Source: Pedosphaera sp.
GTDB lineage: Bacteria > Verrucomicrobiota > Verrucomicrobiia > Limisphaerales > DSYF01
Reading direction: 5' to 3'
DNA length: 64,000 nt
NCBI GenBank assembly: GCA_017853715.1
Contig: JAFMIZ010000001.1
Location: 14,679-78,678 of the forward strand
Under the pieces are notes generated by a model. It saw nothing but the letters and a program-made list of their open reading frames with translations, was not told the origin of the DNA and did no database searches. A program made the translations under genes and the position numbers. Shown here piece by piece: positions 60,136 through 64,000 of the stretch; position 1 is the first letter of the stretch, and every line of letters starts with the position of its first letter.

Positions 60136-61380
60136 TCAGCGGCGAAAGAATAAGAGCCACACAATCAATAGCATTGGGAGCATGACCGGCAGCGTGAATC
60201 GCAGGACATAACCGAGGAAGGTAGGCGTGCGGACCTTTTGATGATCCGCAATGGCTTTGACCATGAAATTGGGGCCATTGCCAATGTAGGTGTTGGCCCC
60301 AAAAAACACGGCACCCACGCTTATGGCCACCAACAAGGAGCCAAATTCGGGCGTCTGGACCATGGATGCCAAGACGGCCGGGTTGCTGGCCCCCTCGCCC
60401 GCCGAGGCACTCAGGAAACTTAGATAGGTCGGCGCATTGTCGAGGACACTGGAGAGCGTGCCGCTCCCCCAGTAAAACAAGGCCGGAGAAAACCCGCCCA
60501 GTTTCCCGGAATAATGAGCCGCATTGTTTTGCAGCCAATCAAGAGCAGGCATCATGGTGCAGAATATCCCGATAAACAAAATGGCCACCTCTTGTATCGG
60601 GTGAAAGGTGAAGTGATTAGCCTCGTGGATATCCTTGCGAGTGGTAAACCATGAGCCCGCGGCGGCGGCCAACATCAGAGCCTCACGAACGAATATCGGC
60701 TGGCTGATGAACACAGCCACCAAAATCACCGCGAGAAAGCCGACATTGCCCATTCCCCGGAATTTGAATTGGTCCGGCGACTCAGCCACCTCCCGCACGG
60801 CCTTCGGAGCGCGCAGATAATTGCGCCGATCAACGACATAAAACATCAGGAGCAAAACGCCGATGCCCGTCACCCACATCGGCCAGCAATGTTCCGCCAC
60901 CCACCAAAACGGGACCCCCTTCAGATACCCCAGGAACAAGGGCGGATCGCCAATCGGAGTGAGACAGCCGCCCACATTGGAGACCACGAAAATGAAAAAC
61001 ACAATGTGGTGCGCCGTGATACGATACTTGTTCATCCGAATCCACGGACGGATCAGCAGCATGGATGCGCCTGTGGTGCCGAGAAAATTTGCGAGCACAG
61101 CTCCCAACAAGAGGAACCGAACATTTTCAAACGGAGTCGCCTCCCCTTTGACGGTGATATGAATGCCCCCGGAGACCACAAACAAGGAACCGATCAAAAC
61201 AATGAAGCTGACGTATTCATGCGCCACGTGAAGCACGCGTTCATGAGCGTGGAGACCAAACAAGTAGTAAACCAGCGTGATCGCGCCGAGGGCCAAGGCC
61301 ACTTTGGGATAATGCCTACCCCAAGCCTCGGCGTTTACCAATGGCCCCAAAGCAATAGCCCGAAGGGGATCATCATCCAC
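60136..61380 (-). CDS. ArsB/NhaD-superfamily ion transporter (annotated-type: sodium:proton antiporter / citrate-transporter-like)
   Basis: 414-aa polytopic membrane ORF with blocks GATGASMLLIRP, GGCLTPIGDPPLFLGY and GANTYIGNGPNFMV. GTG start as given in the track; the exact start is uncertain. Confidence 0.7.
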   Translation of the reverse strand: MDDDPLRAIALGPLVNAEAWGRHYPKVALALGAITLVYYLFGLHAHERVLHVAHEYVSFIVLIGSLFVVSGGIHITVKGEATPFENVRFLLLGAVLANFLGTTGASMLLIRPWIRMNKYRITAHHIVFFIFVVSNVGGCLTPIGDPPLFLGYLKGVPFWWVAEHCWPMWVTGIGVLLLMFYVVDRRNYLRAPKAVREVAESPDQFKFRGMGNVGFLAVILVAVFISQPIFVREALMLAAAAGSWFTTRKDIHEANHFTFHPIQEVAILFIGIFCTMMPALDWLQNNAAHYSGKLGGFSPALFYWGSGTLSSVLDNAPTYLSFLSASAGEGASNPAVLASMVQTPEFGSLLVAISVGAVFFGANTYIGNGPNFMVKAIADHQKVRTPTFLGYVLRFTLPVMLPMLLIVWLLFFRR

Positions 61381-61667
61381 GGGCTGGGGTTCAATAAATG
61401 ATCCTCCATGCGCCGCGGAAGCTAGGAACGCGCTTTATCCTGGTCAAACTGAATCCAGCTGAGGCTGGCAATAAAGGCGTAACCCTCCCCCCTCCGCGGA
61501 ATCAAAACGCCATCAAGGCGGAAGGAAGAGGGCTTAATCGCTGAAAGCAGACGGCTACCTGTCACTGGCAAGACCAGGGCAACCGTCTGCAAGAGTGGAC
61601 GTGGGCGCCCACGACTGGAGACGGTGGCCCAAGGAATGAATCGTGATGGCGATGAATCGACCGGTTT

Positions 61668-62000
61668 TCATGCGGCAATCAATTCACGCGTTTCAGCCAA
61701 GATCGCCGCCTGACGACGAGCCCGTCGCTTGGCCATCGCCACCTTCTCCTCGAACAACGCCGGGAAGAACAGCAAAGGATACGCCGTCGCCCAAACCAGG
61801 CCCGCCGCTTCATTGGCGGCCCGTCTGAGTTCGATTCCAAGCGTCGCCGTTTCCGCATTGGCCAATCGCTCCCGGAGCAACCGCTGGTTCAGCCGCTCGA
61901 ACTCGTTTTCCAAGACGGCCCGGAACGGCGCGGGCGGCAGGGGATTCACCTCGAACCGGGTTTCCGGTCCGAACACGGTAGGGACTCTATTTGCATTCAT
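61668..62000 (-). CDS. Hypothetical protein (110 aa), no family recognised
   Basis: Clean ORF with protein-like composition (helical, LNQRLLRERLANAE...VWATAYPLLFFPALFEEKVAMAKRRARRQAA). Preceded by a structured leader that carries a terminator. Confidence 0.55.
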   Translation of the reverse strand: MNANRVPTVFGPETRFEVNPLPPAPFRAVLENEFERLNQRLLRERLANAETATLGIELRRAANEAAGLVWATAYPLLFFPALFEEKVAMAKRRARRQAAILAETRELIAA

Positions 62001-62044
62001 GTTCTATGCTTTCTTTTTCGCCGTGGCTTCTGCCGCGTCGCTCA

Positions 62045-62078
62045 ACAAAAAACCCGCGATTGTTTCTCAATCGCGGGT
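62045..62078 (-). terminator. Intrinsic terminator located 45 nt upstream of the 110-aa gene start (leader terminator)
   Basis: Minus-strand RNA reads ACCCGCGATT-GAGAAAC-AATCGCGGGT (a perfect 10-bp stem, 62078-62052) followed by TTTTTG. Confidence 0.75.
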
Positions 62079-62140
62079 TTTCTGTGAAATCGTTGTTACT
62101 TCGTTTTAGGTATCCAAACCTACTTCACCAGAAAACCCGC
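62045..62140 (-). promoter_or_regulatory. Candidate terminator/antiterminator expression platform (riboswitch or attenuator, class unknown)
   Basis: GCGGGTTTTCTG (RNA from 62140-62129) is perfectly complementary over 12 nt to CAGAAAACCCGC (62084-62073). That second segment includes the 5' arm of the terminator, so the two helices are mutually exclusive. Confidence 0.5.
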
Positions 62141-62329
62141 CACCGCACTGCCAACGAGACGTAATAAACGTCGCGCGATGGGTGAGCGCGGAGCACTTGA
62201 TTGTCTGGACCATGTTCTTCATTTCAACGCGGCCATTAAACACCATCAAAGTGCCTTTGTCAAACCGACCGCTCCGTTTGCATTTTTCGTGCCTTCCCCT
62301 GCATTCCAAGTTCAAATGAACGGCAACAA

Positions 62330-64000
62330 ATGAGTAAAATCGTCGGCATAGATTTGGGCACCACCAACTCACTGGTGGCCACAGTGGATTCTGGCATCCC
62401 GCTGGTTCTCGCGGACGCAGGCGGCAAACGCCTGACTCCATCAGTCGTGCATCTATCGAAACCCGGAGAGAAGCCGCTGGTTGGACTCCCGGCCAGCCGC
62501 CTGCGAGCCCTAAGACCTTCGGAGACAGTTTACTCAGTGAAGCGCTTCATCGGCCGCCGCGCCAATGAACTGACCGACACGGACGCGGATGTCCCCTACC
62601 CGCTTAGCCGCAGCGGCTCTGGCCCGGCGACGATTGACCTGCATGGCCATTCTTGGACACCGGAAGAAATCTCCGCTGAAGTCCTGAAGAAGCTCAGAGC
62701 GGATGCCGAATCCAGTTTAGGTGAATCCGTGACCCGCGCAGTCATCACCGTGCCCGCCTACTTCAACGACGCCCAACGCAACGCCACCAAGCGCGCGGGC
62801 GAACTGGCCGGCTTCACCGTCGAACGCATCATCAACGAACCCACCGCCGCCGCGCTCGCCTACGGCTTGGACAAGCTGAAGGAGAAATCGAAGATCGCCG
62901 TTTACGATCTTGGCGGTGGCACATTCGACCTTTCGATCCTGGAACTCAACGAGGCCGTGTTCCAGGTGATCGCCACGCACGGCAACACCCGACTGGGCGG
63001 CGACGACATTGATCGCGCGGTGACCGAACACCTCGCCAGCCAGGTCGAACAACAATCCGGCAAAGTGCTTCGGCATACCGGCACCCGGCAGGCAAGCCCC
63101 GAACAACTCATCGTCTGGTCCAAGCTTCGCGAAGCCGCTGAACAAGCAAAGATCAAGCTCTCGACGGAAAACGAGACCGACATCGCCCTGCCCTTCCTGC
63201 TGCCCGATTACAGCCTCAGTTATCGCCTCACCCGGGACGAACTGGAACGCATCGCCCGCCCCATCGTCCTGCGAACGCGCGAGCACTGCCTGCGTTCACT
63301 TGCCGATGCGGGGCTCGAAGCCCGCGACCTTGACCAAGTGATTTTGGTGGGCGGCCAAACGCGCATGCCCCTCGTGCGCCAACTGGTGGCAGAATGGTTT
63401 GGGTGCGCTGAGTTCGAGGAAACACGCGGCGGCCTTCGGCTGGGAACGGAATATCACGAAGCCGGCGGCCCATTACTCAACACGGGCGTAAACCCCGATG
63501 AAGCGGTTGCGCTCGGCGCCGCCATCCAAGCTGCCATCCTCTCCGGCGACTTGCGCAACGTGCTGCTGCTCGACGTGACACCGCTGTCCCTGGGATTGGA
63601 AACGTTTGGCGGCTTAATGAATGTGATCATCCCGCGCAACACCACCATTCCGGTAAAGGCGGGCGAAATGTTCACCACCGCCGTGGATAACCAACGGGAC
63701 ATGCTCATCCATGTGCTCCAAGGCGAACGCGAGCGCGCGAAGGACAATTGGAGCCTGGGCAAGTTCACGCTGGAGTTCGGACCAGCGCCTCGCGGGGTGC
63801 CGCGTGTCGGCGTGCAATTCGAGATTGATGCCAACGGAATCCTCAACGTGCTCGCCCGCGACACGCGCACGGGCAAGGAGAAAATCGTCCCGATGAAATC
63901 CGCCGTGGACGTGGACGACGAAGCCGTGACCCGCATGGTGGAGGAGTCTGTGGAACACGCCTTCGCTGACCTTGCGACCCGCCGCTGGGTGGAGGCGAAG
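62330..64000 (+). CDS. Hsp70-family chaperone (HscA/DnaK-like), 3' end outside the window
   Basis: Not in the ORF track because there is no stop in the window. The ATG at 62330 opens a 557-codon frame: [77 protein letters not shown]. Confidence 0.9.

Follow-up and report, generated by a model that had tools for sequence, protein, structure and literature searches.

Transcription attenuators in which a promoter-proximal open reading frame (ORF) is combined with the alternative pairings 1:2, 2:3 and 3:4 are known from the trp, his, thr, leu and pheA leaders of Proteobacteria (RF00513, RF00514, RF00506, RF00512). The element presented here is a leader with the same order of parts, including an antiterminator strand placed at the end of the leader ORF. 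It precedes a gene for a protein of 110 amino acids (110 aa) on the minus strand of a 64,000-nucleotide (nt) stretch of Pedosphaera sp. DNA (contig JAFMIZ010000001.1, positions 14,679 to 78,678), the whole of which is called the window. A second group of similar systems are the antibiotic-responsive leader-peptide attenuators, such as yxjB/tlrB of B. subtilis with tylosin (PMC6851288), and the erm and cat leaders and their relatives, which have been reviewed (PMC5418344). The features that the leader studied here would share with this group are a short ORF without an amino-acid codon run, a stalled ribosome that shifts the RNA from terminator to antiterminator, and a single downstream gene. 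The genes controlled in this way are known resistance genes (rRNA methyltransferases, ABC-F proteins and efflux pumps), and several of the leaders need a specific nascent-peptide motif. Transcriptional riboswitches and conditional terminators of the type predicted by PASIFIC (PMC5314783) also resemble the leader in their mutually exclusive terminator and antiterminator and in an upstream helix that sequesters the antiterminator strand.

Judged from the comparison of related sequences, the leader is probably a ribosome-mediated (leader-peptide) transcription attenuator of an undescribed family that controls the 110-aa gene. Four RNA segments, A to D, are predicted to form the mutually exclusive pairings A:B, B:C (antiterminator) and C:D (terminator). 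This terminator/antiterminator switch overlaps a conserved, unannotated reading frame (the small ORF), and therefore ribosome sensing is likelier than a ligand-binding riboswitch. A first-pass annotation of the window had proposed a three-segment switch in an unclassified riboswitch or attenuator. The attenuator part of this proposal is retained and the riboswitch part gives way to the conserved small ORF, while the number of segments rises to four, since an upstream segment A (62208-62199) can pair with B.

Terminator, antiterminator and their alternative pairings

Related loci comprised 80 genome loci (110-aa protein identity 50-66%) and 12 metagenome loci (77-92%, one at 57%), and with the window included 93 loci form the base for counting hairpins. 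The leader alignment, termed A2, holds 88 distinct leaders that fall into the window clade and a larger, more distant clade; neighbouring genes were counted over 90 loci. RNAalifold on the whole alignment returned the terminator alone, and the other helices came from folding per clade and from voting over single-sequence folds. As controls, helix columns were slid for pairing and sequences shuffled for covariation. The loci in which both the terminator hairpin and the small ORF are kept cover 50-92% identity of the 110-aa protein.

On the plus strand of the window, AAAACCCGC occurs twice (62049-62057 and 62132-62140), with GCGGGTTTT at 62073-62081. The two arms of the terminator hairpin (segments C and D in Table 1) are 18 nt each and 94% complementary, with a 5-nt loop. 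Their core is a perfect stem of 10 base pairs (bp), CCCGCGATTG/CAATCGCGGG on the plus strand, which in the minus-strand RNA reads CCCGCGAUUG/CAAUCGCGGG around the loop AGAAA and is followed by UUUUUUGUU. By itself the hairpin has a free energy of -27.9 kcal/mol, and it stands 45 nt before the ATG of the 110-aa gene (62000). Its pattern has one match in the 64-kb window versus 0.01 expected, and the 330-nt spacer folds with z = -3.9. The repeats, the 10-bp stem, the U run and the 45-nt gap named in the first-pass annotation are thus all in place and beyond chance. Equally borne out is its 12-bp alternative helix, exclusive with the terminator, for which 62129-62140 and 62073-62084 are 100% complementary. 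The best duplex of the terminator 5' arm with the upstream leader reaches -27.4 kcal/mol versus -12.9 kcal/mol in shuffled sequence (z = -6.6), a value equalled by none of 100 shuffles.

Two simpler origins of the hairpin were rejected. A genome-wide terminator repeat of the repetitive extragenic palindromic (REP) kind does not fit a hairpin that is single in the 64 kb and single per locus, and a terminator belonging to an upstream convergent gene does not fit upstream genes that are divergent in both clades. Indeed, the gene upstream is divergent throughout, coding for Hsp70 in the window clade and for a Ser/Thr kinase in the distant one, and the hairpin lies 15-72 nt before the 110-aa gene across loci; transcription of the 110-aa gene should therefore pass through the terminator.

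Upstream of the 110-aa gene, the near-invariant hairpin CCCGCGAUUG-loop-CAAUCGCGGG with its U run was found in 91 of the 93 loci. Compensatory (double) changes occur at 6 of the 14 stem pairs in the 88 leaders, and stem-keeping changes include CCCACG/CGUGGG in L051 and L052, GACC/GGUC in L083 and GACUG/CAGUC in L089 and L031 (L numbers denote single loci). The core pairs are identical in 86-88 of the 88 leaders. This invariance is unusual for a terminator and would suit protein-dependent antitermination or autoregulation, in which an RNA-binding protein, possibly the 110-aa product, itself without known function, binds the hairpin or segment B and sets the choice. Such a protein is very unlikely to be the answer, because the stem is already held near-invariant by a triple constraint, C having to pair with both B and D while B also codes; moreover, the leader has no repeated motif of the kind bound by TRAP, PyrR or BglG, and the conserved reading frame would be left unexplained.

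Read as DNA, the same conserved palindrome, a perfect 10-bp inverted repeat with 5-nt spacing, could be an operator for a dimeric transcription factor rather than an RNA element. It lies, however, ~140 nt downstream of the promoter, its A-run and U-run flanks are terminator-like, and its loop varies from 4 to 7 nt across loci. G-U wobble variants (GATTGCC/GGCAGTC) keep RNA pairing and break DNA symmetry, and covariation of B and A with the palindrome is sensible only for RNA, all of which makes an operator extremely improbable.

In one locus, L086 (Ga0302321_100462217), segments B and D, which are direct repeats of GCGGGTTTTCTG, have lost the stretch between them, and segment C and the terminator have gone with it; the site is ~60-100 nt upstream of the 110-aa gene. 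Either natural recombination has produced a variant with constitutive read-through, or the gap is an assembly artefact.

The core of segment B in the window, GCGGGUUUUCUG (62140-62129), repeats 12 nt of segment D exactly. The distant clade has a different B, GGCAUCGUGGG (codons G-I/V-V-G), which copies the upper part of D, is extended by GAAAU/AUUUC and ends 10 nt before the small-ORF stop; the B segments of the two clades thus each copy a different part of D. Segment A of the distant clade is ACCACG (codons 3-4) and shows AU-to-GC covariation against B: the A:B pair 22-131 is AU in 54 leaders and GC in 5, tracking a U-to-C change in B that also improves B:C. Compensatory variants are likewise found in the internal hairpin H1 (GAUGU/ACAUC in L088, CGUCG/CGACG in L090, GACGUG/CACGUC in L084), and at the pair 66-85 of its distant-clade equivalent 31 sequences have CG and 31 have AU. 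Taken as a whole, the 'off' structure (A:B, P0, H1 and terminator) is 89.7% paired, versus 34-45% when slid, and has 17 pairs with double changes versus 8.6 +/- 1.8 in shuffles, none of 500 being as high. Support from covariation is thereby shown for the predicted helices A:B, H1, P0 and C:D.

For the antiterminator, the B:C columns are 89.6% paired over the 88 leaders versus 32-44% when slid, and 95% paired within the distant clade alone, so that both pairings proposed for the window are conserved in its relatives. The position of the best duplex with the terminator 5' arm hardly changes from leader to leader; in 64 of the 88 leaders at most 5 of 100 shuffles match this duplex, with z down to -8.6 in the window clade. 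Folding of the window clade with RNAalifold gives three states: A:B before C is made, B:C once C is present without D, and A:B with C:D in the full leader. Single-sequence folds of the window agree, and voting over single-sequence minimum free energy (MFE) folds of the distant clade yields the same three states.

A reading frame kept across the leaders

Besides its helices, the leader holds a small ORF that always precedes the 110-aa gene. A homologous ORF of 33-38 codons is present in 90 of 91 loci, and it is uncalled as a gene in public assemblies (L088-L092). Its ATG column is invariant in the alignment and its frame is open in 87 of the 88 leaders; stops interrupt the +1 frame in all 88 and the +2 frame in 39 of them. 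The stop falls in alignment columns 145-147 in 87 of the 88 leaders, 19-29 nt ahead of the hairpin core, and is TAA in 36, TGA in 35 and TAG in 5 of the 76 distant-clade leaders from which stop types were counted. All 11 distinct gap patterns within the ORF are multiples of three, and gaps after the stop are 1-10 long. Since the indels are all multiples of three, the stop column is fixed and TAA, TGA and TAG interchange, the ORF is kept as a reading frame. In L070 it has one codon fewer. The sole 1-nt frameshift occurs in L027 (2757-2866), which has an earlier TGA (peptide ...WQRTSVFLASWE).

The encoded peptide follows a different rule. Codon-position entropy is 0.78/0.95/0.97 in the small ORF versus 0.64/0.59/1.16 in the 110-aa gene of the same loci, and the peptide matches no family. 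By its entropies it is free of protein-type selection; a frame that is kept around a peptide that is not is the signature of a regulatory leader ORF. A Trp-sensing or arrest peptide of the TnaC/SecM type was considered, prompted by a GIVG motif and by a Trp ~14 residues ahead of the C-terminus. It was rejected because several loci have C, G, E or H in place of this single Trp, because GIVG is the antiterminator strand and because protein-type selection is lacking. In several distant-clade leaders (e.g. L006, L012, L028, L030, L035, L072 and L087), the Cys and Trp codons at A2 columns 78/99 are swapped (GCMAIW versus GWMAIC, TGC...TGG versus TGG...TGC), which looks as if C-G had been exchanged for G-C between the H1 loop and a downstream GGCAG. 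The 2-bp contact suggested by this swap was set aside, as the neighbouring pair is too inconsistent and the tertiary contact unproven.

TTGACA, a putative -35 box, was found in 89 of 91 loci, and in 82 of these 89 the distance from its end to the small-ORF ATG downstream is 35-39 nt. As putative -10 hexamer the window clade has TNTAAT and the distant clade TTTCTT. With this promoter the 5' untranslated region (UTR) of the small ORF would be only ~5-9 nt.

Promoter, ORF and strong terminator together look like a complete gene, and it is conceivable that they form a gene in its own right, for a small protein or a small RNA, with a constitutive terminator; leaky read-through or a cryptic promoter would then serve the 110-aa gene. 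A promoter-like TTCACA-N18-AACAAT does overlap the terminator (62088-62059), but the distant clade does not share it and has GTCAAT as the corresponding hexamer. A peptide without protein-type selection or family match is not what such a gene would encode, the conserved B:C and the covarying A:B would be purposeless, and the 110-aa gene would not be expected to follow the small ORF always. An independent gene is accordingly unlikely.

Several other promoter-like sequences were seen around the leader. Two sigma-70-like consensus matches, each 9/12, lie on the minus strand at 62059-62088 (over the terminator 5' arm) and 62200-62227 (over the small-ORF start), and both are unconserved in the distant clade. 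A sigma-54-type -24/-12 motif is directed toward the small ORF at 62281-62297 of the window (minus strand AGGCACGAAAAATGCAA). Perfect GGCACG-N4-TTGC is present in four window-clade loci (L083, L088, L089 and L090), ~56-60 nt upstream of the small-ORF ATG, and the distant clade is without the motif. The same bases on the plus strand (TTGCAT...CCCCTGCAT) could instead be a sigma-32-like heat-shock promoter of the divergent Hsp70 gene.

The reading frame also bears on whether the leader is a new riboswitch class. In that case the A:B-closed domain, with P0 and H1 inside, would be an aptamer, its ligand would stabilise A:B and so favour the terminator, and the ORF would be incidental or a second layer. 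A terminator preceded by a closing helix that supplies the antiterminator strand as its 3' strand is the usual layout of a riboswitch, the internal helices covary, and no known family matches. At the Rfam gathering threshold there were no matches in 8 loci, and an E-value scan with Rfam 15 of window positions 61000-63000 and of L015 2700-3010 gave no riboswitch family. The best sub-threshold scores (threshold in brackets) were those of His_leader 29.7 (49), Thr_leader 26.4 (55), Trp_leader 18.2 (41), Leu_leader 18.6 (50) and rnk_pseudo 19.2 (55), and the weak leader-family matches were driven by terminator plus antiterminator. This is in keeping with the first-pass annotation, which had recognised no known riboswitch.

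An untranslated aptamer, however, would not be expected to have frame-preserving indels, an ATG fixed relative to the promoter and a fixed stop of interchangeable type. Conservation resides mostly in the helix strands A, B and P0, and the long unpaired stretch (columns 25-51) is only moderately conserved; indels of 3-9 nt occur inside the putative aptamer; and A, B and the internal hairpin differ between clades, which is unusual for a ligand pocket. A riboswitch of this kind is therefore improbable. The hairpin-rich ~150 nt upstream of the switch, pointed out in the first-pass annotation, do contain real GACGU and UAGGU hairpins, but given the conserved small ORF they probably do not make up a free-standing aptamer.

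Table 1. Positions of the leader elements and of the regulated gene in the window.
Feature	Position	Strand	Remarks
-35 box TTGACA	62258..62263	-	leader promoter, putative role
Putative -10 hexamer TTTAAT	62235..62240	-	lies between the -35 box (17 nt away) and the ATG (12 nt away)
Leader small ORF, 38 codons + TAA, MKNMVQTIKCSALTHRATFITSRWQCGGGFSGEVGLDT	62106..62222	-	homologous ORF across loci
Segment A, CCAGACAAUC, codons 5-8	62199..62208	-	predicted to pair with B as anti-antiterminator; MFE fold of the window and RNAalifold of the window clade
Internal hairpin H1, GACGU-UUAUU-ACGUC	62158..62172	-	inside the A:B-closed domain; compensatory variants
Segment B, GCGGUGGCGGGUUUUCUGG	62128..62146	-	antiterminator 5' strand; small-ORF codons 26-32
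Hairpin UAGGU-UUGGAU-ACCUA	62107..62122	-	holds the small-ORF stop; sequence varies, hairpin kept in the window clade
Segment C, terminator 5' arm, ACAGAAAACCCGCGAUUG	62068..62085	-	pairs with B or D
Segment D, terminator 3' arm, CAAUCGCGGGUUUUUUGU	62045..62062	-	U run 62052-62047; loop AGAAA 62067-62063
Second, weaker hairpin	62019..62040	-	between the terminator and the 110-aa ribosome-binding site
Regulated gene, 110-aa conserved hypothetical protein, three helices	61668..62000	-	homologues, codon-position selection, AlphaFold2 (AF2) model

The second hairpin of Table 1 was found in ~8 of 10 window-clade leaders, where the sequence differs and the pairing is kept (L081-L084, L088-L090). In the distant clade it is optional, many loci there being without it.

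Proposed attenuation mechanism

From sequence comparison we infer where transcription starts, that the small ORF is translated, that termination takes place and which way the logic runs, a slowed ribosome turning the gene on. Transcription would begin at the TTGACA promoter, and the transcript would open with a very short 5' UTR followed by the 38-codon small ORF. Segment A would lie in its early codons and B in its late codons, C would be the 5' arm of the terminator, and D its 3' arm together with the U run. When the small ORF is not translated, A:B would stay intact, C:D would form and RNA polymerase would stop ~45 nt before the 110-aa gene. A ribosome that has reached the end of the small ORF would either cover B (distant clade) or allow A:B to re-form behind it (window clade), and C:D with termination would follow again. 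By analogy with the trp and his attenuators, a ribosome delayed between A and B while the polymerase makes C would keep A off B, so that B:C could form and read-through would switch the 110-aa gene on. The input is most likely a general slowing of elongation, by starvation or a ribosome inhibitor, and not the shortage of a single amino acid. Such a general signal is favoured because there is no single-codon run and the peptide is poorly conserved.

Several points weigh against a ribosome-mediated attenuator. The putative -10 hexamer is without the canonical A at position 2 and was absent from the consensus-scan list. No recognisable Shine-Dalgarno sequence precedes the small ORF, so that translation would start on a very short leader. 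In the small ORF no amino acid is repeated or enriched and there is no regulatory codon run; with this run lacking and a regulated gene without known function, the identity of the signal is a guess. Segment B of the window clade ends 20 nt before the stop, beyond cover by a terminating ribosome, and the 'off' state there would consequently depend on A:B re-forming behind the ribosome. An architecture with A:B as P1 and B:C as antiterminator is also riboswitch-like. B:C is almost without covariation, because both of its strands are nearly invariant; the predicted helix is conserved, and its support comes from this conservation, from complementarity and from the different B segments of the two clades, with no informative covariation. 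Finally, equilibrium folding, with ribosome masks too, always favours the terminator, so that the decision would have to be kinetic.

On the other side of the balance, the leader has an early ORF, an intrinsic terminator, a predicted antiterminator that shares a strand with it and a predicted A:B (1:2) helix, and its only Rfam matches, all weak, are to leader families (His, Thr, Trp and Leu). That the small ORF is translated is indicated indirectly by its frame-preserving evolution. A codon run is lacking. A regulatory codon run defines the amino-acid subclass of attenuators and not the mechanism itself.

A hybrid is also conceivable, in which the three-helix domain closed by A:B would be a ligand-binding aptamer inside a translated small ORF, and a small molecule and the position of the ribosome would together decide on termination. 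The protein regulated in this way would be that of an orphan helical family confined to Limisphaerales. We regard this combination as quite unlikely. In a milder version of it, the leader would be a general sensor of translation stress or antibiotics and the 110-aa protein a new ribosome-related stress factor.

The regulated gene and the place of the leader among known systems

The 110-aa gene is a member of a real, conserved orphan family of Verrucomicrobiota (metagenome-assembled genomes of the Limisphaerales type). The protein has 496 homologues at E <= 1e-3, those with a named organism all being from Verrucomicrobiota, and its start is conserved. Codon-position entropy in the window clade (0.40/0.33/0.93) has the pattern of a normal protein. 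The AF2 model (predicted local distance difference test, pLDDT, 87) consists of a disordered N-terminus followed by three helices. No match was found in Pfam, NCBIfam, PADLOC, a PDB sequence profile, or by AF2 and Foldseek against the PDB.

In the window, the gene is followed by a permease for which the first-pass annotation had suggested the ArsB/NhaD type; it belongs to CitMHS_2 (PF16980, E = 1.7e-138) and not specifically to ArsB/NhaD. Only 10 of 90 loci have the CitMHS_2 gene next after the 110-aa gene, and with this the suggestion of an ion as ligand, which rested on the permease, loses its footing. In many loci the next gene is convergent, often murA in distant loci; the 110-aa gene therefore makes up the regulated unit by itself. 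The divergent Hsp70 gene (ATG at 62330 in the window) is confined to the window clade, again 10 of 90 loci. A functional tie to Hsp70 or to the CitMHS_2 permease as a core feature was rejected, as each is present in 10 of 90 loci only. The window-clade Hsp70 paralogue scores just under the DnaK equivalog cut-off (645.4 versus 648). A 332-aa Ser/Thr kinase that carries a CxxC...CxxC zinc ribbon at its N-terminus takes the divergent position in 53 more distant loci; its gene (among L001-L080) lies ~100-190 nt upstream of the small ORF on the opposite strand.

Few cis-regulatory RNAs are known for Verrucomicrobiota, and the present one has strong comparative support (88 distinct leaders); nothing was found in the literature on such an attenuator element in Verrucomicrobia. 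The attenuator family is undescribed and found in Limisphaerales-type Verrucomicrobiota; the mechanism itself is not new. An unannotated small ORF is defined in at least 90 genomes and metagenome contigs. The proposed mechanism would place trp-type attenuation outside amino-acid operons in Verrucomicrobiota, in a form whose leader ORF is almost leaderless and free of a codon run. The same mechanism would also mark the 110-aa orphan as a protein that is made when translation is disturbed, which gives a concrete handle on its function.

Compared with the amino-acid leaders of Proteobacteria, the leader has no codon run and controls a 110-aa orphan instead of a biosynthetic operon; its 5' UTR is very short and without a Shine-Dalgarno sequence, it is found in Verrucomicrobiota, and its Rfam scores stay below threshold. 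Unlike riboswitches and PASIFIC-type conditional terminators (PMC5314783), it has, as far as the sequences indicate, a conserved reading frame as its upstream domain and no match to a known aptamer. From antibiotic-responsive leaders it differs in a poorly conserved peptide and in a product without family, fold or sequence match. By analogy of the predicted mechanism, these antibiotic-responsive leader peptides (PMC6851288; PMC5418344) appear to be its nearest functional analogues.

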